This document shows, in pieces, positions 859 to 13,793 of a stretch of 22,920 nt of DNA. The position numbers and the translations under genes are program-made. The stretch lies in contig CAVXZB010000008.1 in the NCBI GenBank assembly GCA_963765895.1, positions 1-22,920 on the forward strand. Direction: 5' to 3'. The stretch's first letter is position 1, and each line of letters begins with the position of its first letter. The stretch is from an uncultured Nitrososphaeraceae archaeon (lineage in GTDB: Archaea > Thermoproteota > Nitrososphaeria > Nitrososphaerales > Nitrososphaeraceae). The notes under the pieces were generated by a model that worked only from the letters and a program-made list of their open reading frames with translations, made no database searches and was not told the origin of the DNA.

Positions 859-1782
859 ATGAATACAATGACGAGGGAATGGCAGAAACGAGACAAAGGT
901 CTAACTGCTAGAATGATTTTCTGTTTTTTTATATTAGCATTGCTTTATGCTGTTTTCATAGGTGTTTTAGCCTATGTTGGAGTGGGCTTTATTCCAATTG
1001 TTATAGCGGCATCAGCTATGATTGTAGCCCAATGGTATTTCTCAGATAAGATAGTACTGTGGAGCTCCGGGGCAAAGGTAGTCAGTAGTGATCAATTTCC
1101 AAAACTTCACGAACTAGTCGAGAGAATAGTTGCTAGAACCAATTTGCCAAAACCAAAGATAGCCGTAATTAATACTAAGATACCTAACGCTTTTGCAACT
1201 GGCAAAGGACAAAAGAGCTCAGTGGTAGCAGTAACTACTGGTCTTTTAGATCTATTGGACACCGAAGAGCTAGAGGGAGTATTGGCCCATGAACTCACTC
1301 ATATTAGAAATAGAGATGTCCTTATTCTAACGCTTGCAAGCATATTTTCGACAGTCGCGGCTTATTTGATGCAATTTGGTTTCTATGGCGGATTATACGG
1401 AGGAGGTATGGGAGGCAGTTATGGTGGTAGAGATGATCGAAATAATGGTAGCGCATTTATAATTATGTTGTTAGTGGCAGCTTTGACTTGGATAATCAGC
1501 TTTCTTATTATTAGAGCGATTTCGCGATACAGAGAATATTCCGCAGATAGAGGCTCAGCACAGATGACAGGAAAACCTTCAAAATTGGCAAATGCGTTAG
1601 TTAAAATTAGCGGTGAGATGTCTCGTGCACCCAAAAAAGATTTAAGGCAAGTAGAAGGACTAAATGCTTTTTTTATTGTTCCAGCTATCTCTGGCAGTTC
1701 TGTCATAAATCTTTTTTCCACTCATCCACCGGTAAACAAGAGAATCCAAAAACTACTAGAAATGGAGGCCGCGATGAGTTAA
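859..1782 (+). CDS. htpX: Zinc metalloprotease HtpX (peptidase M48)
   Basis: N-terminal TM helices, PNAFATG, HELTH (HExxH), SRYREYSAD third-ligand motif and FSTHPP motif. Confidence 0.95.
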   Translation: MNTMTREWQKRDKGLTARMIFCFFILALLYAVFIGVLAYVGVGFIPIVIAASAMIVAQWYFSDKIVLWSSGAKVVSSDQFPKLHELVERIVARTNLPKPKIAVINTKIPNAFATGKGQKSSVVAVTTGLLDLLDTEELEGVLAHELTHIRNRDVLILTLASIFSTVAAYLMQFGFYGGLYGGGMGGSYGGRDDRNNGSAFIIMLLVAALTWIISFLIIRAISRYREYSADRGSAQMTGKPSKLANALVKISGEMSRAPKKDLRQVEGLNAFFIVPAISGSSVINLFSTHPPVNKRIQKLLEMEAAMS

Positions 1783-1821
1783 TAAAAATGCATTATTCTT
1801 AGATATTTTTCAGATTCTGAT

Positions 1822-2277
1822 TTAATTAGGTATAATACCTTCCCCTTTAAATAGATCCTTTGCGTCATGGATAGATAAATCGTTATTTGGAAGTATTATA
1901 TCCGATTTAACTATTTCACTATCTTCTAATTCTTGACCATCCTTCGAAACTAGCGAGTGTATTTCTTTAAGTTTCTTCTTAAATTCTTTCTCATCTTTTA
2001 TAATCCTCTTTACGATATCGACCATGGAATTATCAAGAGCATTTATTTTTGTCGCTGTTCTTCGGTTAATCCTAAACTGACCCTTTCCCATTACTCTTAC
2101 GATCATCTGATCGTGATTTCGTAATTTGGTATCCCGAAAAGATGATGCTGAATTATTAATACTTTTCCTATTGTTTCTTATTACAGATGATCTTCGTGAT
2201 CTACTTGACTTTCTATGTGATTTTGAGATCCTCTTGACACGACTGCTCTTGCGTGTTATTCTATTTTTAACCATCAT
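1822..2277 (-). CDS. PspA-associated protein PspAA with Arg/Lys/Ser-rich N-terminal extension
   Basis: The C-terminal ~93 aa (MIVRVMGKGQF...LNxLD-like...SDIILP..DLS...LFKGEGIIP) match the PspAA family as I recall it. The neighbourhood with htpX and the pspA remnant fits. Confidence 0.8.
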   Translation of the reverse strand: MMVKNRITRKSSRVKRISKSHRKSSRSRRSSVIRNNRKSINNSASSFRDTKLRNHDQMIVRVMGKGQFRINRRTATKINALDNSMVDIVKRIIKDEKEFKKKLKEIHSLVSKDGQELEDSEIVKSDIILPNNDLSIHDAKDLFKGEGIIPN

Positions 2278-2817
2278 GAGATAACCCCGGGCTTTTCTTT
2301 ATTCTCATCTTTATTTCATTATGTGATCCTCCCTCTATTGTCCTCTTTCTGGCACAAATCTCATTAGCTTTATCTAATATATCTAATACAATTTTCTCTA
2401 TATATTCTGGTCCATCTTGTCGCATCTGCATATCTGCTATTGTTTAAGATCTTGTATTTGCATGTTTATAATCTTATGTAGTGAGGCACGTCCACCATTT
2501 CCTATGCTTGTACACAAACTGATATCTGTCTTGCTTATATGAAATGCTGGCGTTATCCTATATCCTAGAATCCTATTGAGGCTTTTTCATTATGTTCCAA
2601 GATAATTTTAACAATCTCATTATCAAGAATATGAACAATTACATTTTAATCATGACCAGCCACGCACTTTTCCGGGAATTTCAATATTTGCAGCGATATT
2701 TGTTTCTCGCATAACTAAGTTAGAATGTGACTGGAAGATCCCAATTTAATTTTTATTTAGTATAGTGATCCTTTACCATTAAATCTCTAAATAAATAATG
2801 TATGACAAGAATCCAAA
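2267..2817 (-). pseudogene. pspA: Decayed PspA/IM30 family gene
   Basis: Manual minus-strand translation gives colinear PspA-like fragments across frames: FGFLS, TILNK, LSY/EKQISL, NMQIQDLKQ/IADMQMRQD, ARKRTIE and MRIKKSPGLS. There are several stops and frameshifts. It lies immediately upstream of PspAA. Confidence 0.55.
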
Positions 2818-3020
2818 TTGTGAATTCTAGAAGTTATTGACCTTAAAATAACTGGTCCACCTATTTGTTCCCCGCTGATCGAGTAGAATCGATTTAGCAT
2901 TGTAACGAAGGCATACTCTACTACACTAAATCCAGATGATTCTGAACTACTCCTATATTTGTCGGGTTTGTTTTACTAGGATACGTGTAAAAAAAAAAGA
3001 TTTTCTTCACATATTACTTG

Positions 3021-3794
3021 CTAGTAGGAGGAGAAGGTGTCATTACCCCTGCTATTATTACTATTAATCTTGTTACCATTATTGAAATACGGCTTAGTGA
3101 TTGATAGAGATGATGGTAAGTCTGGAATTTTATTTGTACTATTTTCTCCAACTATTGCCGAAGCCTCTTCTAGTATCTTATTTATTTCTTCGCCGCTATC
3201 AGAATAAGACGCCACACCTTCTAGCACATTGGTAGGCTCTGCTATAGTACCATTCAACAATTCCCCCAATGTATCGGAGATTTCACTGAGGGAGTGATCT
3301 GCGTTCGGGATTACCTCTGATAAACCCCCTTTTAGTTCTTTAATTGTAGATGTTGCAGGACCTAATGTGAACATTACATCTCCCAATTCAGTTACAGTCT
3401 CTAGTCTTATTTTTACTTGCTCAGTTGTCATCCTCGTAGAATCAACTACTTTATTTATTCTTCGAATTTGAGATAGCTCATTAGATAGCGATCTGGCTTG
3501 TTGCATGTTGTGATTTTGTAGTGCTTCGGTAACATTATTAAATACCCGATGATCCTTATCTTTGAGATTGCTTGATGTTTTTTCCATTTTTGATATCTGA
3601 ATCTCTAATTTTTTCTGCGTTCTTTCGAGGCGAGATCTCAGAGGTTCAGAAGGTTTGATGTTATCCAATATCTTCTCCTTCATCCCTTCTCCTTCTCTAC
3701 GAAATGTGCTCTTACTCTTTTTGTCTGACCAATTTGTGTAGAATGTTGGCAAGGTAATACCCATACTAAAATGATTCAGAATTGTTAATCTCAT
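3021..3794 (-). CDS. cdvB: ESCRT-III / Snf7 family protein (CdvB-like paralogue)
   Basis: Coiled-coil Snf7 core (KLEIQISKME...ELSQIRR...IRLETVTELGDV..TLGPA), KILEEAS and a proline-containing IPDLP tail. No C-terminal wH domain is evident. The true start may be downstream (ATG ~3765 or TTG at LPTF). Confidence 0.85.
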   Translation of the reverse strand: MRLTILNHFSMGITLPTFYTNWSDKKSKSTFRREGEGMKEKILDNIKPSEPLRSRLERTQKKLEIQISKMEKTSSNLKDKDHRVFNNVTEALQNHNMQQARSLSNELSQIRRINKVVDSTRMTTEQVKIRLETVTELGDVMFTLGPATSTIKELKGGLSEVIPNADHSLSEISDTLGELLNGTIAEPTNVLEGVASYSDSGEEINKILEEASAIVGENSTNKIPDLPSSLSITKPYFNNGNKINSNNSRGNDTFSSY

Positions 3795-4151: not shown

Positions 4152-4542
4152 ATGGACTATAAAAAAATAGATTATAAAAAACTATATGAAGATATTATTA
4201 ATATTGATCCAAAGATCCGACTCGTTACTGTATGCGATTCGAATGGTAGAATAATGTATTCTGAACATAATCAGGGTGTAACAAATTTATTGACCGCGGA
4301 AGAAAGTAAACAATCTCTTGAACTCGCCGTAAATTCATGGAAGCTACGTAGTGACCTTGAACCAAAAATTGGAAAGGGGAAATATGTCTTGGCAGAATAT
4401 GAAAAGATTAAACGTATAACTATGCCAGTACCCTGATGATGCTGATCATCATCTCCTGTATATTACTACAGAAGTAGAAGCCGATCATTCAAAAGTTATT
4501 CGTATGATAAGTCAGGTATCAATACGAAAATTGTTGTTATAA
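4152..4542 (+). CDS. Roadblock/LC7-like (DUF6659-type) thaumarchaeal protein, split by a +1 frameshift at 4431-4436
   Basis: The ORF ends ...RITMPVP* at CCC-TGA. The +1 frame continues DDADHHLLYITTEVEADHSKVIRMISQVSIRKLLL* to TAA 4540-4542, completing a ~129-aa protein. TTTAAA lies ~24 bp upstream. Confidence 0.65.
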
Positions 4543-4929
4543 TTCTTATGCGACTGTACGCTTAGGATGCTGCATTTAATGTTACATGAAATATCGTAAG
4601 TTTCAGAAATCCACACATATTTTCAATCGAAAGATTTCAAGAGAAAAATAGAATTTACATTCTTGATGACCTACTAATAAAACATTAAATACATAATGAC
4701 ATAAGAAATGTCATCTGTCGGCAAAGATATGTTAAACCATTATCATGTATCCCTAGGATGATAGAAAATAGAATTTAGAAGGATCCACTTCGTAGGTACA
4801 AACTAATTTCAAGATACGCTACCAGCCCAGGGACAAATCTAAATGGATCCTAATATTCGACCAGTATCATAAAGAAATACTGTTTAGTGGAGCAATATTT
4901 GATTCGCCAGATAGCTAGGGTGTATGCCC

Positions 4930-5223
4930 TTAGTCATAGTTACTGAAGCGTATGGTAGTTTTCCTATTTGACTTTATTGCAAATTTCTCATATTCGCGCA
5001 TGTGGCCAGTAATTTGTCGTATAACTTGTAACGATATTCGATTGACGTTTGCAATGAATTCATCCGTGTCCTTAACCTTAATGTATTTTCCGGCCTCTTT
5101 TGTGATGGCTTTACAAATAGCAGTAATCGCTTTGTCCAGTTCTCTACTTGGACTGTACATGACCTTCAATAATCTAGGAAGTTCTTCTGATGGTTTATCT
5201 ATTGACATTCTTTTTGTGTTCAC
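4930..5223 (-). CDS. Small basic helical hypothetical protein, third gene of the nuclease-helicase operon
   Basis: GTG start 33 bp after the helicase stop, preceded by purine-rich AAGAGGGTAGAAG. Same strand as the helicase, 97 aa, predicted amphipathic helices. Confidence 0.6.
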   Translation of the reverse strand: MNTKRMSIDKPSEELPRLLKVMYSPSRELDKAITAICKAITKEAGKYIKVKDTDEFIANVNRISLQVIRQITGHMREYEKFAIKSNRKTTIRFSNYD

Positions 5224-5256
5224 CTTCTACCCTCTTAAATATGCTGGAAAGCGCTT

Positions 5257-6583
5257 CTAATTTCGCCATATAAAAAATCCATCTTTTCTAGTCACGGTAT
5301 CTATTGATTTTGACAAAAACTTACTCTTTATCAGCGTGTTTTGATCGCCTACAATTATTGTCTTCCTTTTACTCCTAGAAAAAGCAACACATGATCGAGG
5401 AATATTTACAAAACCTATAGCCTTTTCGATATCGGCTTCATTATTTGACCTCACCATAGATACTATTGCAACCTCTGATTCCTGTCCTTGGAATTCATCT
5501 ATAGTTCCTACACGTATTTTTGTATTATTCCTATTACTAATATGGAACTGCAACATTCTCTCCTGTTGTTTGTAAGGAGTAGTAATTATAATATCATCAA
5601 TACCCATGCTGAGAAGTCCATCAATGAGTTCTTTGATTACAGAAATCTCGCCAATATTTATAAAATGCTTTTGCTCTTGGCTATTACTGTTTGTATCTAC
5701 AAATACTATTTTCTTTTCATGATTTAGTATTTTGATTAGGTTGTTACTTGTTCCGTCGTAGTCCTTTTTTGCTATATCTGCTGTTGAAATTTCTTTAACC
5801 GAATCGTGTGCCTTTAGCTGATATTGATAATTTGGATTTATTAGATCTAAAATATCCTTATTAAATCTGTATTCTGTTTTCAATAATGTAGTTTCATATT
5901 GCTTCAGGATGGAACTAAACAGACTATATCCAATAAAATCATGGGATGCAGGAGGCAACTGCTTGTCATCTCCTATAACAAGAATTTTTCCACTATCATG
6001 TCGTAGTGATGAGAATAGCATCGCCATTGTATCAAGCCCGACCAGACCTGTTTCATCCACTATGACCGCTCCAACTTTCATGATTTTTACCAAGTCTTTT
6101 GCGCTATAGGTAGTAGTAAGAATAATTTGTGCATTTTGAAAATATTTTCTCGCTATTTCAGCTTTATTAAACGAATTCATTTCATTACTATCTATGAAGA
6201 TATTATCCAGGGTATAATTTCGAAGATGTGGATATGAGAATTCTAGATCTACAGTATTGCCGTATCTAATTATTGGCCCTTTTAGAAATGGCAACCTTGC
6301 TCTCTTACAAAGAGAATCTATCTTTGCCAGTATGCTATTGACCATAACATTAGTGGGGGCTGTGACCAGAACTGGAGAATTTTCGGCCAATAGATCAAAG
6401 CAGCAATGAGAAATAACCGTTGATTTACCTGTTCCGGGAGGCCCGGTAACCGGAACAGTATTTTCCATATTTATTCTATATCTGGCGGCTTTCTGATCGG
6501 CATTTTCATATTTTAGAAACTTATCTAAAGAATAGATATTATCATTATGGTTGTTGTTGTTTGTTGTTGTTGTTGTTGGTCAT
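5257..6583 (-). CDS. SF1B helicase, Upf1/Dna2/NAM7 type (AAA_11/AAA_12); N-terminus interrupted by one extra base in an AAC repeat
   Basis: Walker A GPPGTGKS, Ia TAPTN, Walker B IVDETG, III GDDKQLPP, IV EYRF, TPYKQQ, V TIDEFQGQE and VI VAFSRSK. The frame stays open for 31 codons upstream of 6468 and includes a Q-motif-like ENADQKAA. ATG 6583 joins this frame if the extra base at 6562 is removed. Confidence 0.9.
6550..6577 (-). repeat. (AAC)5-A-(AAC)4 microsatellite encoding poly-Asn
   Basis: The plus strand reads (GTT)4 T (GTT)5. Confidence 0.95.
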
Positions 6584-6589
6584 ATCTAT

Positions 6590-8131
6590 CTAAATATCAT
6601 ATTCCTCTTCAATTGTCTCGCCACTATGCTCTTTGTTTCTCCGTCTGTCTATTCGATTATTAGATATTGGATCAATGATGTCATTTCCTTGTTCATCAGT
6701 TCTGCTATCTGTTCTTTGTATCAGAACTGAATTCCGATATTGAAGTATAATATCGGCATGAGGTGATCGCCTGAAGAAATTATCCAGAAATCGCATGCTA
6801 GTGAGTCCTCCACTAAAGTTAAATCTATCTATGGTAAGTTTGGTCGATTGCCCTCTGTTTTCATGTGTCAGGTAGTACATATCACCTCTGTGAAACCTGA
6901 GCCTAACTGATTTTTCGATGAGGTTTATATCTATAATCATTGCAGTAGGGTTGCTGCCCAGATTTGGATTGCCGTCAGATACAGTTACGTGGTCGCCTAC
7001 ACTAAAATCTATGAATTGACCAAACGATTTATCTCCAATTAATGTAACTGTCTGATTAGGGAAATCAAGAGTATTCCAATCTAAATAGAGATTAGTTATC
7101 GCAGATCCCTCAGCCTGCCGTTGTTTTGCATTCCTCGAGTCGACGTATACCTTCCATCTATCCTCATAAGATATTTCTTCTCTAATCCTTTTTGAAAGAT
7201 TGAATTCTGTTTTCCGTCTCATTATTTCACTTTCATTAAGATTGCTGCTAGGTGCAAAAGCCCATCCTAAGCAGCCTTCTTTTAATGAACAATTCGGACA
7301 ATAGCCAGTAATAGAAGGAGATAATTCAGACTTCCAGAACCGTACATATTTGTCAATGGATTCGTAAACCTTTGTAAAATTAAATTTCTTTCTATGACAA
7401 TCTCTGTCTGCAAATTGCCAGATGTATTCAGGGGGAGACTGTAAATTTAGTGCCTTCATCAGTAAGAGTATTTCAGCATCGGCTTGGAGTTTCCACGTAG
7501 GCGGTGGAGTCTTAAACCTGCCAGTCTTGATCTGTATTATTAGTACATGACTTTTTTCCAAATTCTGGAGACATTCAGAGCTGATGTATGAGTTTTTTTC
7601 AATAGACGGAATCTTAATTTTTATTAAATCAAGTCTTCCTTCAAGTGGAATATGAATATTGCGTATTGTGAATTCTGGTCTGAGTAGTGCTTGCTTATTT
7701 TCTTCCTCTTCCACAATAAGATTATCTACTAGTCTATCTCCTCTGGTATATAGATCATCCATAATAGGATCAAATGGTTTATCAATTCCCGCGAGCAGAA
7801 ATCTTTTCCAGTTTGTATCGATATCAGCCTTAGCATTTTGTTCAAATATTCCAATACCATATTCTTTTTCTATATGGTGCCCTTTTTTTGAAAGGTCTAT
7901 TATTTCCAATATTGATTTCACAGTGATTCTATGAACAGCATTTCCTATCTCACCACTAGCGGTATATTCGTTTGATTCCATCCCAAAAAAAGAGATATTA
8001 TATGCCGCGCGTTCGCAAAAAGCCATTTGCGCAAAGGCACTGACTCTAGGAATAATCGTGGGCTCGAGGTGTCTTATTATATCATTTGAACTTAATCCTG
8101 AATTTGTATTACCAAGAGCAAAATCCATCAA
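6590..8131 (-). CDS. Cas4/AddB/Dna2-like PD-(D/E)xK nuclease with Fe-S cluster motif and C-terminal Dna2-like stalk/beta-barrel
   Basis: N-terminal Cys (FCER), GNAVH, RPEF, GRLD, QIKTG and CPNCSLKEGC (Cx2Cx5C) give the four-Cys iron-staple layout. The following helical segment and FSVGDHVTVSDG resemble the Dna2 barrel. Confidence 0.8.
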   Translation of the reverse strand: MMDFALGNTNSGLSSNDIIRHLEPTIIPRVSAFAQMAFCERAAYNISFFGMESNEYTASGEIGNAVHRITVKSILEIIDLSKKGHHIEKEYGIGIFEQNAKADIDTNWKRFLLAGIDKPFDPIMDDLYTRGDRLVDNLIVEEEENKQALLRPEFTIRNIHIPLEGRLDLIKIKIPSIEKNSYISSECLQNLEKSHVLIIQIKTGRFKTPPPTWKLQADAEILLLMKALNLQSPPEYIWQFADRDCHRKKFNFTKVYESIDKYVRFWKSELSPSITGYCPNCSLKEGCLGWAFAPSSNLNESEIMRRKTEFNLSKRIREEISYEDRWKVYVDSRNAKQRQAEGSAITNLYLDWNTLDFPNQTVTLIGDKSFGQFIDFSVGDHVTVSDGNPNLGSNPTAMIIDINLIEKSVRLRFHRGDMYYLTHENRGQSTKLTIDRFNFSGGLTSMRFLDNFFRRSPHADIILQYRNSVLIQRTDSRTDEQGNDIIDPISNNRIDRRRNKEHSGETIEEEYDI

Positions 8132-8268
8132 TATACACCATTTTATTCTGTAACATTCGATAGGAATTTTACATTAGCAATAAATATAAGGATTAACATC
8201 TAACCATACTTACTACACTGACCAAACAGACTAAGTATACTAAACTTACGATCGATAAATCCTTAGAA

Positions 8269-9001
8269 ATGCTACGCGTTCACATTGCGCCAGTTGGATT
8301 TGAGGTCGACCGAATAGTCCTACCAGCAAGTAATATGAGAGCTGATAGGGTTTGGTTAATAATTCACAGTGACTCTATCGATGATGCCGGACAACCATTT
8401 AGTAAGTTAATATCCGAAAGGTTAGAGAAGGATCAAATCGAATTTAAGATGGAGTATGCAGATCGTACAGATTTATTTGATACACTTCGAGTTTTGAGAA
8501 GGATAATTTTGAAAGAAAAGAATAATGCTATACTTGTTAATGTTTCTGTAGGAAGCAAGATTCAAGCAATTGCCTCAATGATGGCATGCATGATGTTCAA
8601 AGATGAAGTAGATATTTTGCCTTATTATGCAGTACCCTGAAAAATACGTCAACATCCCAAGAGAACAAGAGACCACTGGTTTAAAGAAAGTATTGAAGCT
8701 TCCAGAATACAAGATAGAAACGCCCCCTAATCATCTGATCCACTGCCTAAAAATAATTCATGAAAGATCTGATAACAGAATTGCAAATAAAGACTTGAGA
8801 GATCAAGCCCTTGCACGGGATCTTATTCATGTAGAGCGTGACAAAAACTACGATCAGTCTGCATATATGGCGTTGAAGACAAATCTGATTGAGCCATTAC
8901 TAAAATGGAAATTTGTAAGAGTCGAGAAAATTGGTAGACGTCATGATTTAGTTCTAACAGAAGATGGATTAAATGCGTTGAAGTTCCTTCATCCTGTATG
9001 A
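8269..9001 (+). CDS. HFX_2341/DUF6293-type transcriptional regulator (Csa3/CARF-like N-domain + wHTH), split by a +1 frameshift at 8635-8640
   Basis: RVHIAPVGFEVDRIV...ADRVWLI...VNVSVGSKIQA...PYYAVP then, in +1, EKY...LPEYKI...LIEPLLKWKFV...GRR...LTEDG (wHTH). The two ORF-track pieces join into ~243 aa. Confidence 0.8.
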
Positions 9002-9102
9002 TGTATGAAAATAACAAAAGCAATATTTTCATGTTTTTGTTCCTAAGGAACGGCTTGATAAAAGTGTGAAGGTTATTTTAATGGATTGATTGATTAAATG
9101 GA

Positions 9103-9340
9103 CTATTTTTGCTCAAGCTCCTGTAGCCTTGTAAATATTGCCACAAGCTGATCGGATAACTATGCTATAGCATCATCTTTTACCTTGTCTGTTTCTCTTA
9201 GCGACCTATTTAGATCTTCTAGTTCTTTTACCTTGCTCTGTATATCTGAACCTTGTCTTTCTCACTCATGTAACATTTAAAACTTAAGATAAGGCCTGAT
9301 TTTACAAAATATCCCAGTTTTATCAAATTCCTCTTTAACT
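9103..9340 (-). pseudogene. C-terminal remnant of a Nitrososphaeraceae tyrosine-recombinase/integrase-like gene
   Basis: Translates as KTGIFCKIRPYLKF/...ERQGSDIQSKVKELEDLNRSLRETDKVKDDAIA*LSDQLVAIFTRLQELEQK*. This resembles the coiled-coil tail I recall from such integrases. It has internal stops and abuts the IS. Confidence 0.5.
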
Positions 9341-9362
9341 AATTTTGTCTCACAAAATCTAA

Positions 9363-10289
9363 GAGCCTGTCCCAAAATTATTCTCCTATAGATAACTATA
9401 CAACAGCATAAACATACTAACGCAAAATAGCTTTCTAACTTCTTCTCATACCTAACCAAAAGTTTTCTGAACCTGTTGTGCCAGGAGTTGGTTCTTTCAA
9501 CGACCCATCTTCTAGAACGATGATGATGAAAATGATTTGTTAGTACTCGTTTCTCTCTATGTCGAATATGTGGCAAGTATTCCTTCTTGATAACTTCAGT
9601 CTCAATCTCTTGAAAGTCATATCCTTTATCAAGATGAAGATTCTGTCTCTCTTTATTAACCTTGGAGGACGGTCTTTTAACTACGGTATTATCCAGCGTG
9701 TTTATAGCAGCCTTTCATATCATGCGTATTGGCCGCAGTGATAACAACAACAGATAATGGAATACCTTGTCTATCAGTCAATACATGATGACGTTTTGTT
9801 CCTAACTAACTTACCTCTGTCTGTAGGATTAGGTCCAATCAGGTCATTTTTTGCCTAGAGATGCCTTTATCGATATACTACTACTATCAAGTGACTGCCA
9901 TCTCCATTGAATTCCTACTACATCATCATACACTTTTAGCAGTCTAGCCCATAATTTTCGAAATACCTTAGATGAGGATCATTGTTGGAATCGTCTATGA
10001 CAGGTTGATCCAGAGCCATATTCCTTTGGCAACATCTATCTTCTATTGACATCCAGTTCTTAAGACATACAAGATGCCATCCAATACCTTCCTAAATGAT
10101 ACAACTGCAGCTGGACGTTTTATGGAATTATTTGATTTTTTCTGATGGGAGTATCAACAACCTGGCCTCATTCCATAACGCATCAGGGATTCTTTTGTGA
10201 CAGTTAGAAGATACTCTGACTTTATCATAAGCCACACTAAGAACAAAACCCCTCACAAGCTATACTCTATCTATTTTTGGAATGGGTTC
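9363..10289 (-). mobile_element. Degenerate IS5-family element (IS1031-like) with pseudogenised transposase
   Basis: Imperfect terminal IRs GAGCCTGTCCCAAAA and (rc) GAACCCATTCCAAAA, with TAA on both flanks (9360-9362, 10290-10292). Transposase motifs RWVVERTNSWHNRFRKLLVRYEKK, GPNPTDRGK and LDKGYD are present, with many frameshifts. Confidence 0.85.
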
Positions 10290-12127: not shown

Positions 12128-13076
12128 GGCTATGTAGAAAACATCATCAATATTACAAGATTAGTCAGTCTATGCATATTGTAGGTGATACATCTAAATG
12201 ATAACTCTCTGTTCTGCATTCTAGTCAATCTAGACATAAGATGCTCTCCAAATAGTCGTTTTATGACTGATATTATGGTTTCATCTTTGTTTCGTTGATT
12301 GTACAGCAATTTGGAGTAACCACGCTTCATCTGCTTTCTGTACTTACCATGTGTTCTCCACATCGGTACATGTTCATATCGAGCAGGAATAATACTGAAT
12401 GCATGTAAGTCCTCTCTTACGAGAAGGTGATTATCTTCACTATCGTAACCCTTATCAGCTGTAACTACAGATAATGGAAGAATATTTGATGTCCTTGTTA
12501 TAATTGGCCTGAAATCTACATTATCATGCCTTGTTGGAGCTCGTCTTATCTTAATTGTACATATGATTTGTTGTAATACATCTACTCCAATAGATAATTT
12601 CGCATATTTTCTTCTCAATTCTGTTCGATCAGTATAATATTGTGATGCATGAGTTATCTTAAATCCTGTTGAATCTATTCCTGCAAAGATATGCTTGGTA
12701 CCAGCTAATTACAATGAATGACGAAATTATCTTTTCAAGCAATGAATTATTGATTCTATCTGTAAACTTTTGCAATGTTGTAAAATGAGGAATACGTGAC
12801 AACCGTAGAAATGACCTTAGGTAATAGGCTTCAATTAACCACTCGACAAACATTCTATAACTCTTACCTTCATACTGTCGTATAGCAATTAGAACTATGT
12901 GCTGCCATATTGTAAATATGTGATTACTTTTCCTGTTAGAAAATAGAGGAATCCTTGCATGCTTCAAAACACGGAACATAGTACCTGCAAGTCTGACGTA
13001 CATTGATTCTTTCAATAGACTATTGGTATTATACTCTTACAAAGCTTTGACTGTATGAGATGGTTTCTACACAGCC
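12128..13076 (-). mobile_element. IS5-family insertion sequence (IS903-like ends), 949 bp
   Basis: 18-bp TIRs GGCTATGTAGAAAACATC and (rc) GGCTGTGTAGAAACCATC with 2 mismatches. Perfect 9-bp TSD ATAATAGAT at 12119-12127 and 13077-13085. Confidence 0.93.
12130..13015 (-). CDS. IS5-family DDE transposase, split by a single +1 frameshift near 12700
   Basis: IPHFTTLQKF...SFIVIS/GTKHIFAGIDSTGF (D1)...ADKGYDSE (D2)...YNQRNKDETIISVIKR (E). Removing one base gives 294 aa. Confidence 0.88.
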
Positions 13077-13156: not shown

Positions 13157-13793
13157 CAACTTCTGAAAAAACAACTAAACCAATTCTCCGCAAGCTTTAT
13201 GGTGTTTATGAACAATTCTCTATATATTTCCAATAATTCAGAACACTCGTCTGCCAAAGAGCCACGGCCGATAGAAAAGGATTAGGTATGTATTTTTCAT
13301 AATTATCATATATTTGGACTCACTTAAATCAGTTACATTCTCTACTACTTCTTCCACGATTTTCTCCACAGCTTCTGCGACTGATTCTGTAACTGATGCG
13401 TCTGACACTATTTCATTTTGTACGTTGCTAGTGTGACTATCATCTTTTGCAGAGAAATCTTGTGGTCGGGAAGATGATGATGCTAATACGGATACTGATG
13501 GTGGTTTATCAAGACTATTCTTATCATTTAGATCCGGTTCTTGTGAAATATACTTATCTTAGATTTTATGGCATTATCATTTAGATCCGGTTCTTGTGAA
13601 ATATACTTATCTTAGATTTTATGGCATTATCATTTAGATCCGGTTCTTGTGAAATATACTTATCTTAGATTTTATGGCATTCCTCTCTTCACGTTTTGTC
13701 TCTAGATGATGTCTTTTTCTCTATCATCGAATCTCCATTTACATTTTCTGTACTTGATTCACTAGATTCGATGTAATCTTGGTTTATGGTCAT
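13157..13793 (-). pseudogene. Fragmented acidic low-complexity protein with aromatic amphipathic C-terminus
   Basis: MTINQDYIESSESSTEN... then DKYISQEPDLNDKNSLDKPP...EAVEKIVEEVVENV, then IPNPFLSAVALWQ, then YRELFINTIKLAENWFS, in shifting frames. Disrupted by the tandem repeat. Confidence 0.5.
13521..13681. repeat. Perfect tandem repeat, 3 x 53 bp
   Basis: TTATCATTTAGATCCGGTTCTTGTGAAATATACTTATCTTAGATTTTATGGCA starts at 13521, 13574 and 13627, with no spacers. Confidence 0.97.

Follow-up and report, generated by a model that had tools for sequence, protein, structure and literature searches.

A nuclease gene, a helicase gene and a regulator gene lie side by side in the window (the whole 22,920-nucleotide stretch of DNA analysed here), and they raise the question of whether their products form one DNA-processing enzyme under dedicated control, and what such an enzyme would do in the cell. 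We think it likely that the cassette encodes a lineage-restricted (Nitrososphaeraceae), accessory helicase-nuclease with the architecture of Dna2, divided over two subunits and accompanied by a divergent CARF-wHTH regulator. The spacing given in an earlier note on this DNA was confirmed, with gaps of 33 bp (5224-5256) between a small downstream ORF and the helicase, 6 bp (6584-6589) between helicase and nuclease, and 137 bp (8132-8268) between nuclease and regulator. The decayed insertion sequence that it placed nearby is also there, as DDE transposase fragments at 9280-9714 and 12130-13015 (Pfam scans of window ORFs). As it had stated, the window contains no array-like CRISPR repeat (Tandem Repeats Finder), and Cas1 (PF01867) has no match in the whole assembly, which is 88% complete.

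The nuclease gene is an uninterrupted ORF of 513 aa (6590-8131, minus strand). Its N-terminal part (aa 1-300, 7232-8131) is a Cas4/RecB-family PD-(D/E)XK nuclease domain, whose AF2 model (pLDDT 78.6, pTM 0.77) aligned best with Dna2 (5ean_A; VIA-align Z 12.9, 231 aa, 4.2 A), followed by AdnA (Z 12.6), Cas4 (12.4), AddB (12.3) and SSO0001 (10.1). Every one of the best 21 VIA rows was a RecB/Cas4/lambda-exonuclease-kind nuclease, and Foldseek placed Cas4, Dna2, ACE1 and AddB on top with probability 1.00. Cysteines C39, C278, C281 and C287 (C...CxxC...C) are invariant in all 17 nuclease sequences, a pattern that fits a putative 4Fe-4S cluster. In family searches with the 513-aa protein, Pfam returned 0 families at E up to 0.01, with neither Cas_Cas4 nor PF08696, the family of Dna2 itself; NCBIfam had no family for it, a profile search of PDB sequences gave no match, and profile-profile probabilities were low. 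PADLOC matched Cas4c (9e-6) and Cas4 (3.4e-4) without a Pfam Cas_Cas4 match, and ESM Atlas neighbours bearing PF08696 scored 0.85-0.91, which we treat as leads only.

Besides the cysteines, the residues conserved across the 17 aligned sequences are H67, D168, Q200-x-K202 and Q216/D218/E220. D168 and K202 are retained, and position 200 is Gln in 17/17, so that the protein departs from the catalytic D...(D/E)xK motif. The earlier note had passed over this replacement. A paralogous nuclease, which we call type 2, has DWK (DxK) where the type 1 nuclease of the window has QxK; the corresponding residues of P0174, a fused relative, are ExK, and motif III of Dna2 is likewise ExK. Because its second PD-(D/E)XK acid is an invariant Gln, the type 1 nuclease may be weak, altered or inactive.

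The C-terminal part of the same protein (aa 301-513, 6590-7231) comprises stalk helices, a 1B beta-barrel of Upf1-like helicases and a variable tail. In a model of all 513 residues, where overall pLDDT is low (50.2, and 60-85 in the C-terminal part), residues 334-439 matched the 1B domain of Ighmbp2 (4b3g_B; VIA Z 10.4, rmsd 2.1, 84 residues). In this low-confidence model the barrel also matched the 1B barrels of Sen1, ZNFX1, SETX and Upf1, and the alignment with Dna2 5ean_A ran from residue 62 to 440 (Z 12.5). The motor follows in the next gene, an SF1B (Upf1/IGHMBP2-like) helicase reading frame (5257-6579, minus strand) that matches Pfam AAA_12 (8.9e-36) and AAA_11 (1.2e-19) and has conserved helicase motif residues (alignment A3). 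It is 89.6% identical to an uninterrupted 435-aa protein of genome G005, an orthologue that matches the NCBIfam IGHMBP2 family at 9e-50, under the cut-off.

By fold and family matches, the succession of nuclease, barrel and SF1B helicase is Dna2-like, as had been proposed. Eukaryotic Dna2 (PDB 5EAN) likewise runs from an Fe-S RecB/Cas4-type nuclease through a beta-barrel and stalk to an SF1B Upf1-like motor, but it is one polypeptide, whereas here there are two, divided between barrel/stalk and RecA1. This split is stable: the helicase lies directly downstream of the nuclease as a separate gene at 15 of the 16 related loci with downstream DNA, with a gap in G005 of again 6 bp. Among longer relatives of the helicase, the best matches are fusions of 894 aa with Cas4 and PDDEXK_1 domains (P0174, E 3.7e-25), and the nuclease profile is collinear with the N-terminal part of P0174, all landmarks matching, though with weak statistics (E 0.0056).

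Is the helicase gene intact? It had been described as starting 6 bp past the nuclease stop. The spacing holds for the ATG at 6581-6583, which is the helicase start in relatives, but this ATG and the helicase body are in different frames, and reading from it gives MTNNNNNKQQQP and then a stop. From 6579 on, the frame of the helicase is open yet offers no ATG, GTG or TTG ahead of the ATG at 6468, the first usable start as assembled (403 aa); the assembled ORF therefore begins at Walker A, without the Q-motif segment. That segment is conserved in all 14 relatives listed and is encoded in the window by the open frame up to 6579; relatives start 34-40 residues before Walker A (69 in the over-long L012 ORF). 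The frame break falls in an (AAC)n poly-Asn tract that, with the ATG, spans 6550-6583 (TRF: period 3, 9.3 copies, 7% indels). Short-read contigs of runs X1 and X4 break at 6536-6586, and contigs that bridge the tract differ in length by 16 letters (X6, once the gap at 8635 is deducted) and by 4 letters (X14). Both differences equal -1 mod 3 and restore the helicase frame; they presumably lie inside the (AAC)n tract.

The regulator has a similar defect. From its domain matches it is assigned as an HFX_2341/DUF6293-type CARF-wHTH protein, with a predicted CARF-like Rossmann half (HFX_2341_N; 8269-8640, plus strand; PF19810 1.3e-33, Csa3_N 1.2e-5, PADLOC CARF3 1.6e-36) and a winged-helix half in another frame (DUF6293_C; 8627-9001, plus strand; PF22665 6.3e-17). 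The claim of a head-to-head CARF-like wHTH regulator was right as to domains and the 137-bp gap, but in the window a single surplus base at 8635 spreads the protein over two overlapping ORFs, whereas G005 (259 aa), G018 and G021 each encode it in one ORF. Since it reaches 17.6 bits against a cut-off of 500 for the NCBIfam equivalog NF051475, it is no orthologue of haloarchaeal HFX_2341.

Two frame breaks in one cassette (helicase start and regulator), both missed in the earlier note, could mean that the locus is a decaying remnant in which the breaks are real mutations and the cassette no longer functions. A third break in the neighbouring gene 4152-4436 (the sites on the contig being 4431, 6550-6578 and 8635) and the IS fragments flanking the locus fit such decay, as does genome G004 of the same genus, where nuclease and regulator are deleted along with the helicase's 5' part and IS remnants are present. 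We nevertheless judge decay rather unlikely. Differences from G005 by codon position are 58/55/154 in the nuclease, 36/20/165 in the helicase, and 17/10/50 and 26/10/48 in the two regulator halves; the third-position bias is strong in both regulator halves and the helicase body, and in nuclease and helicase it points to selection. The extra base at 8635 is missing from all four public runs compared, and the lengths of both bridging contigs restore the helicase frame. Moreover, the same sequence context, CAGTACC[C]TGA, surrounds two single-base insertions, suggesting a context-bound sequencing error. However, the genome as a whole does not show the motif to be generally prone to this, with GTACCTGA occurring 150 times and GTACCCTGA 17 times. 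Two GTACCCTGA sites lie on the contig, and among the 17 only that at 8631 is flanked on both sides by open frames of at least 60 codons; at 4427 the flanking frames are 100 and 35 codons. Half or more of the sampled words from the locus were present in 19 runs from 13 studies, six being RNA libraries, and RNA-library contigs of X14 map to 5603-8961, which is no proof of transcription. The intact form of the cassette is the common one in environmental populations.

In contrast to these genes, the small 97-aa ORF downstream (4930-5223, GTG start), which had been proposed as an accessory or inhibitor subunit, does not belong to the cassette. A search of 21 related loci turned up no equivalent of it, G005 lacks it too, and G004 has kept it despite the deletion of nuclease and regulator there; its substitutions by codon position (6/6/1) indicate no coding constraint. 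On the other side, the 137-bp divergent intergenic region (8132-8268) contains a conserved AATATAAGGA block at 8183-8192, a TATA-like element and repeated ACTAAAC/ACTTA words (alignment of the window, G005 and L016), as well as an inverted 8-mer (8187-8194 / 8258-8265). The conserved elements are a putative promoter and operator.

How widely is this arrangement kept? As the earlier note had anticipated for a locus that is accessory and not universal, the nuclease occurs in 5 of 36 genomes of the same family and in none of 24 genomes that belong to other families within the order, and its 53 matches among 1.84 billion cluster representatives are all close relatives or fragments. The cassette is restricted to Nitrososphaeraceae and patchy. 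Methylase, restriction and IS fragments are found near such loci. The predicted link between the regulator and the pair also recurs: at 10 of the 13 regulator loci read, the regulator gene stands opposite a Cas4-like nuclease gene, with an SF1 helicase next in line where the DNA extends far enough (3 type 1, 6 type 2 and 1 type-2-like), and these nucleases come from two very divergent nuclease-helicase families. The proposed four-gene unit, however, failed, since a larger sister clade of the same pair has two other genes in place of the regulator at 16/16 loci; the regulator is thus not obligatory.

In G018 (type 1 cassette) and G031 (type 2), the cassette occupies the same chromosomal place, next to tRNA-Met and an integrase. 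This, the IS fragments in the window, and the abundance of Cas4-like nucleases and SF1 helicases in thaumarchaeal integrated elements, as excerpts of PMC6563490 describe, would suit a replication or recombination module serving an integrated mobile element rather than the host. We find this very improbable. The tRNA gene separates the integrase from the cassette, so that the cassette is probably outside the element of that integrase, and the window has no tRNA gene. Pfam scans of window ORFs, moreover, showed no integrase, capsid, primase or conjugation gene, and hence none of the integrase-like remnant that had been reported.

Comparison with known systems sets the cassette apart. Dna2 is essential in eukaryotes, whereas the present pair is accessory, patchy and paired with a CARF-wHTH regulator. 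AddAB/AdnAB and Cas4 share the nuclease fold and four-cysteine pattern, but the motors of AddAB/AdnAB are SF1A UvrD-like, as UvrD-Cas4 fusions also use an SF1A motor, while ours is SF1B Upf1-like; Cas4 is a single domain that works with Cas1-Cas2, and the genome has no Cas1 match. With Mokosh, only the generic helicase core is shared (PADLOC MkoA 2.9e-49, profile 613-1081 of 1112): Mokosh pairs the MkoA helicase with a PLD nuclease (MkoB) or uses fused MkoC, but Pfam scans of window ORFs revealed no PLD nuclease, and no YprA helicase or methylase partner either. In agreement with the suggestion of an undescribed system, PADLOC recognised no named system, only generic profiles for helicase, Cas4 and CARF. 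The UvrD-Cas4 fusions and the DNA2-like fusion of BRIGADE type I are other helicase-nuclease defence components akin to this pair, and portions of PMC5704561 treat Cas4-like nucleases joined with SF1 helicases as predicted defence components. The regulator has the two-domain CARF and winged-helix build of Csa3a/Csa3b and HFX_2341. HFX_2341, in the relevant parts of PMC11434293 a repressor found also in CRISPR-negative species, is a stand-alone global regulator, whereas ours is dedicated to the neighbouring cassette.

These likenesses suggest how the enzyme might work. One subunit would supply the four-cysteine Cas4/RecB-fold nuclease together with stalk and 1B barrel, which are usually helicase parts, and the other the SF1B motor, RecA1 and RecA2, from the Q motif onward. 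Because the nuclease chain carries barrel and stalk, the two proteins would have to assemble into one enzyme. If it works as Dna2 and other SF1B enzymes do, it would thread single-stranded DNA from a free 5' end, move along it 5'->3' and cut or degrade that strand. To judge from its family, the CARF-wHTH regulator would most likely keep the shared 137-bp promoter region repressed and release it on receiving a signal. Cyclic oligoadenylate made by CRISPR systems is an unlikely signal, because profile searches of the genome found no match to Cmr2-type Cas10, nor one to Cas1.

On what DNA would it act? We tentatively favour action against invading or mobile DNA, at somewhat less than half of the whole. 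Next comes regulated end resection at double-strand breaks, at about a third of it: a damage-induced machine under the CARF-wHTH protein, an alternative or supplement to HerA-NurA and not antiviral. Beyond the Dna2 architecture itself, two observations point to repair over defence. First, in G008 the regulator and a Zn-ribbon gene are divergent from NurA (PF09376), HerA (DUF87), Mre11-like and Rad50-like genes, although this link was seen at one locus only. Second, the sister-clade operon, which several MAGs carry between one and the same pair of genes for a nitroreductase and an FMN-reductase, encodes a protein with weak matches to HhH glycosylases. In addition, passages of PMC7480081 on Sulfolobus islandicus report that csa3b overexpression raised nurA-rad50-mre11-herA 2.4- to 3.0-fold and that Csa3a couples cas and DNA-repair genes. 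Type 2, in favour of resection, is present in 6/6 genomes of the genus, but type 1 is patchy (5/36), congeners have different cassette types in one locus, copies are deleted or decayed in G004, G020 and G027, and methylase, restriction and IS fragments lie nearby. There is also no repair gap to fill, because genome G000 has a NurA-family match on contig C24.

A broader scheme is offered here as speculation, and we hold it to be doubtful. Soil Nitrososphaeraceae that oxidise ammonia may keep interchangeable DNA-end-processing cassettes, namely split Dna2 in two very divergent types and, in a single genome, NurA-HerA-Mre11-Rad50. Each would be coupled to a dedicated regulator, the same CARF-wHTH protein throughout, and often to a small Zn-ribbon protein as well. 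The type 1 active site would be a remodelled one, with Gln for the second acid and invariant E220 for the Tyr of QxxxY. Such cassettes would give these archaea a signal-inducible response to broken or foreign DNA without CRISPR-Cas or Cas10.

The locus encodes a helicase-nuclease of the Dna2 type, restricted to Nitrososphaeraceae, that is divided over two genes, bears a QxK motif and is probably controlled by a CARF regulator. Its nuclease ORF (window 6590-8131, minus strand, 513 aa) was assigned to no family by Pfam or NCBIfam, PADLOC gave weak Cas4 matches (best 9e-6), and a search of solved-structure sequences with A1, the profile of the nuclease family, yielded nothing at E values up to 1. 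An AF2 model of the full-length protein is poor and was relied on for the barrel only, where pLDDT is 60-85. In the PDB, this model (overall pLDDT 50.2) matched Dna2 best (Z 12.5 over model residues 62-440), together with the 1B domain of Ighmbp2 (Z 10.4, rmsd 2.1 A, 84 residues); Sen1, ZNFX1, SETX and Upf1 came after these. A second AF2 model, of residues 1-300, was built from a 48-row alignment including type 2 paralogues (from a second, very divergent nuclease-helicase pair) and two fused relatives, and reached a pLDDT of 78.6 and a pTM of 0.77. Each of the best 21 VIA matches of this model is a RecB/Cas4/lambda-exonuclease-type nuclease; the list is led by Dna2 (Z 12.9, 231 aligned residues, rmsd 4.2 A), AdnA (Z 12.6, 233 residues, 4.2 A), Cas4 (Z 12.4, 177 residues, 3.6 A) and AddB (Z 12.3, 255 residues, 4.3 A), with RecE, ACE1, MGME1, SSO0001 and Exo5 ranking below these four. 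Foldseek agreed with VIA, and an ESM Atlas feature search, which provides leads only, placed the nuclease near PDDEXK_1 and Dna2 clusters; its lead for Dna2-like forms in other archaea is a Methanobacteriota cluster of 519 aa. These fold matches identify the protein as a nuclease of Cas4/RecB fold in which four cysteines are conserved and which continues, after the nuclease domain, into a Upf1-like helicase stalk and 1B barrel.

The family is narrow. A word-indexed search recovered 233 nuclease-family proteins, and every source name that carries an organism is Nitrososphaeraceae; among 1.84 billion cluster representatives there were only 53 matches, all close relatives or fragments. In a 17-member alignment, the invariant residues are C39, C278, C281, C287, H67, D168, Q200-x-K202, Q216, D218 and E220. 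The invariant Q200 is the chief caveat on nuclease activity. E220 occupies the position of the Tyr in the QxxxY motif of relatives, and we hypothesize that it might supply the acid missing at Q200.

The helicase, assembled as an ORF at 5257-6468 (minus strand, 403 aa), matches AAA_11/AAA_12, the MkoA helicase core and the IGHMBP2 family. In Upf1-like helicases, the 1B barrel and stalk usually come before RecA1; at the window locus both are carried by the nuclease chain. All 14 listed helicase relatives begin 34-40 residues upstream of Walker A (69 in one over-long ORF), and the segment before Walker A contains a conserved Q-motif stretch and nothing else. The best relatives longer than 763 aa, P0174 and P0175, are 894-aa proteins in which Cas4 and PDDEXK_1 domains are fused to AAA_11/12 domains (28-29% identity to the helicase, E 3.7e-25 and 4.1e-23). 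The A1 profile is collinear with residues 1-413 of P0174, with weak statistics (E 0.0056, probability 6.5%), and the two share the first Cys, His, GxxD, xK, Q helix and CxxC...C, with Glu in P0174 where the nuclease has Q200. A1 was likewise compared with the protein P0222 (E 0.049) and with type 2 (E 0.015); in all these comparisons the profiles lack the depth for significance, and we relied on collinear landmarks alone. The helicase lies directly after the nuclease in 15 of 16 related loci with downstream DNA, the exception being genome G021, and the split is old and stable. A complex prediction for the helicase with nuclease residues 296-513 scored 0.00, which says nothing for or against binding. 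By analogy, the Dna2-like domain order may point to a role in DNA repair; the other candidate role is defence, or action against mobile DNA.

The earlier note gave spacings of 33, 6 and 137 bp between the genes of this locus, which are right as distances between ORF coordinates. As assembled, the helicase and the regulator are frame-broken. The ATG at 6583 reads MTNNNNNKQQQP, then a stop, out of the helicase frame, which is open from 6579 yet lacks a start codon before 6468; the break falls within a poly-Asn (AAC)n tract (TRF: period 3, 6550-6578). The regulator is divided into two overlapping plus-strand ORFs (8269-8640 and 8627-9001), the first ending ...YYAVP-stop and the frame resuming as (M)QYPEKYVNIP. 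In G005, a genome of the same genus, both genes are intact: the helicase is 435 aa, beginning MTNSNHNNNNNSLDKFLNYENADQKAARYRI 6 bp past the nuclease stop, and the regulator is one 259-aa ORF.

The breaks could reflect real decay of the cassette or artefacts. We compared window 4900-9100 with contigs from four public sequencing runs, none shown to be the source sample and all diverging from the window at several positions common to them. The extra base at 8635 is absent in all four. At the helicase, contigs of two runs (X1 and X4) stop at 6535 and restart at 6587; the record of a third (X6) covers the full stretch with 17 gaps, one of them at 8635, leaving 16, and a record of the fourth (X14) covers 6432-7121 with 4 gaps. 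X14 lacks coverage at 4900-5463, an absence to which we attached no weight. Since the offset is 115 bases, 16 and 4 gaps, each 1 modulo 3, would restore ATG 6583 to the helicase frame; we infer that these gaps lie inside the (AAC)n tract. A third single-base insertion, an extra C near 4431-4433, cuts the plus-strand gene at 4152-4436 to 94 aa; its homologue in G004, also of the same genus, is 129 aa, and the lost tail can be read in the window by shifting to the next frame. This base and the one at 8635 share an identical 11-letter context, CAGTACC[C]TGA, which looks like a context-bound error, but genome-wide counts show no general conversion of the motif; a systematic sequencing error at this context is a possible cause. 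Open-frame coverage, tried as a measure of assembly quality, was uninformative, being equally low at loci of other genomes. The cassette is under purifying selection: the two parts of the regulator, like the body of the helicase, retain a strong third-position bias relative to G005, and the breaks are thus either recent or artefacts. We consider it rather unlikely that they represent real decay in this organism.

The earlier note also counted a small protein (4930-5223, minus strand, 97 aa, GTG start) as a possible accessory or inhibitor subunit, a proposal that did not hold. No tblastn match was found at any of 21 related loci, an ESM Atlas search gave no usable match, and among 40 relatives a homologue occurs in G004 only. 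There, at the syntenic locus L037 (G004:C351, 2496-4988), nuclease and regulator are gone, as is the 5' third of the helicase; transposase/IS remnants sit at the junction, and the small ORF and flanking genes are kept. The two copies differ at 13 sites (codon positions 6/6/1; 11 codons non-synonymous, 1 synonymous), nucleotide identity is 95.6% versus 98.3-98.4% in the flanking genes, and an antisense ORF overlapping the small ORF behaves similarly. The small ORF is not a subunit of the system, and most probably does not represent a conserved coding gene. The gene at 4152-4436 was discarded as a sign of synteny, as its family has more than 10 copies in the window's own genome (G000). Decay and deletion of the cassette in relatives would favour defence, as would the methylase, restriction and IS fragments found nearby.

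The window is the entire contig C8 (22,920 bases) of a 4.9-Mb assembly in 88 contigs, 88% complete, with GC near 35% throughout and no compositional island at the cassette. Elsewhere on it, a perfect tandem repeat (53-bp unit, 3.0 copies) lies in intergenic DNA at 13521-13681, just past split IS transposase ORFs at 12130-13015. Within 1822-3794, a Snf7/ESCRT-III-like gene (3021-3794) and a gene for a PspA-associated protein (1822-2277) adjoin an M48 peptidase gene (859-1782), and the genes of 859-3794 may form a membrane-remodelling or stress cluster.

The cassette is accessory. Of 36 genomes from the same family, 5 have the nuclease, against none of 24 from the order's other families, and the related loci from the contig search are all titled as Nitrososphaeraceae or Nitrososphaerales MAGs. 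This patchy distribution fits defence. The nuclease loci form two clades. The window clade (the window, G005, L016, G018 and G021) has the divergent CARF-wHTH regulator; in G018 and G021, a Zn-ribbon ORF of 75 aa separates it from the nuclease. In the sister clade (~55% identity), two further genes of the operon take the place of the regulator in every one of the 16 loci with upstream DNA: one of 410 aa, with weak P-loop matches to AriA, PtuA and GajA (~3e-4) and a weak C-terminal HTH, and one of 345 aa with weak HhH-glycosylase matches. The P-loop partner would suit defence and the weakly glycosylase-like partner repair. Neither gene was found in G000. This conserved operon (410-aa gene, 345-aa gene, type 1 nuclease as in the window, helicase; L022 5581-10840 and 15 other loci) is often bordered by nitroreductase and FMN-reductase genes, and may be a separate undescribed system.

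The linkage of the regulator to nuclease-helicase pairs, proposed from the window alone, recurs in other genomes. The regulator family is wider than that of the nuclease: it was detected in 14 of the 36 genomes of the same family, and several of these have multiple copies. Among 13 regulator loci read, three face the type 1 nuclease, six a type 2 pair and one a type-2-like fragment; one faces something else and one ends at a contig edge. At the remaining locus (L066, G008:C34, 7077-14923), the regulator and a Zn-ribbon ORF are divergent from NurA, HerA, Mre11-like and Rad50-like genes, with a DNA methylase and a GIY-YIG protein on the other side; this single locus under the same regulator family would favour repair. 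Type 2 consists of a ~485-aa protein with canonical nuclease landmarks (CxC, His, EGRLD, DWK, Q...Y, CxxC...C) and a ~450-aa AAA_11/AAA_12 helicase, usually with a Zn-ribbon ORF between regulator and nuclease, and was detected in 19 of the 36 genomes of the same family, among them all six of the window's genus. In G000, the type 2 nuclease was matched at C12:30828-31974 as two pieces that overlap (residues 17-75 and 68-409), is possibly also frame-broken, and has no full regulator found beside it. In one genus, a type 1 cassette (L012, G018) and a type 2 cassette (L071, G031) occupy the same chromosomal place, bounded by a shared set of four upstream genes on one side and by tRNA-Met and an integrase (tyrosine-recombinase) gene on the other, with integrases 87% identical. 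Such exchange of cassettes at one chromosomal locus is again consistent with defence. A HerA query that was probably too narrow gave matches in 5 of the 36 genomes of the same family, with none among those of the window's genus and none in three complete genomes; a paper reports HerA in Nitrososphaera, and G000 has a NurA-family match. Given this query, no conclusion was drawn on a complementary distribution of cassette and HerA.

In the mechanism that we propose, the nuclease and helicase chains would assemble together and, by analogy with Dna2, load on 5' ends, move 5'->3' and cleave the strand, while the regulator would repress at the shared promoter region, where a AATATAAGGA block is conserved. 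Membership of the CARF family could favour defence, and the Sulfolobus Csa3 precedent (PMC7480081) could favour repair. Cas1 and Cmr2-type Cas10 had no match in the assembly (88% complete), so a CRISPR-derived signal is unlikely here, which fits the occurrence of HFX_2341 homologues in CRISPR-negative haloarchaea (PMC11434293).

PADLOC matched no system past generic profiles. Among the nearest published items, UvrD-Cas4 fusions and Cas4-helicase operons are predicted as defence or repair components (PMC5704561), a DNA2-like fusion accompanies BRIGADE type I (a preprint legend), and an archaeal Dna2 is described with its role unclear (PMC3914693). A description of the cassette was not found in the full-text literature searched; the 2020 CARF-superfamily classification, or supplementary tables of the papers cited, may already list its neighbourhood. 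The cassette family is real and conserved and, as far as that search reached, new to the literature, while its component parts are familiar.

A natural split of Dna2, with the 1B barrel of the helicase on the nuclease chain, offers a simple system for studying nuclease-motor coupling, and the QxK variant poses the question of whether the nuclease is active, remodelled or a mere scaffold. A CARF regulator tied to a DNA-end-processing enzyme, with no Cas1 or Cmr2-type Cas10 match in the assembly, would extend the range of roles known for CARF sensors. Ammonia-oxidising archaea drive nitrification in soil, and their responses in defence or repair are, to our knowledge, almost entirely uncharacterized. 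Parts of the cassette are present in 19 runs from 13 studies, and it occurs in many soil data sets, RNA libraries among them; it would be a sensible place to begin the study of defence or repair in these organisms.
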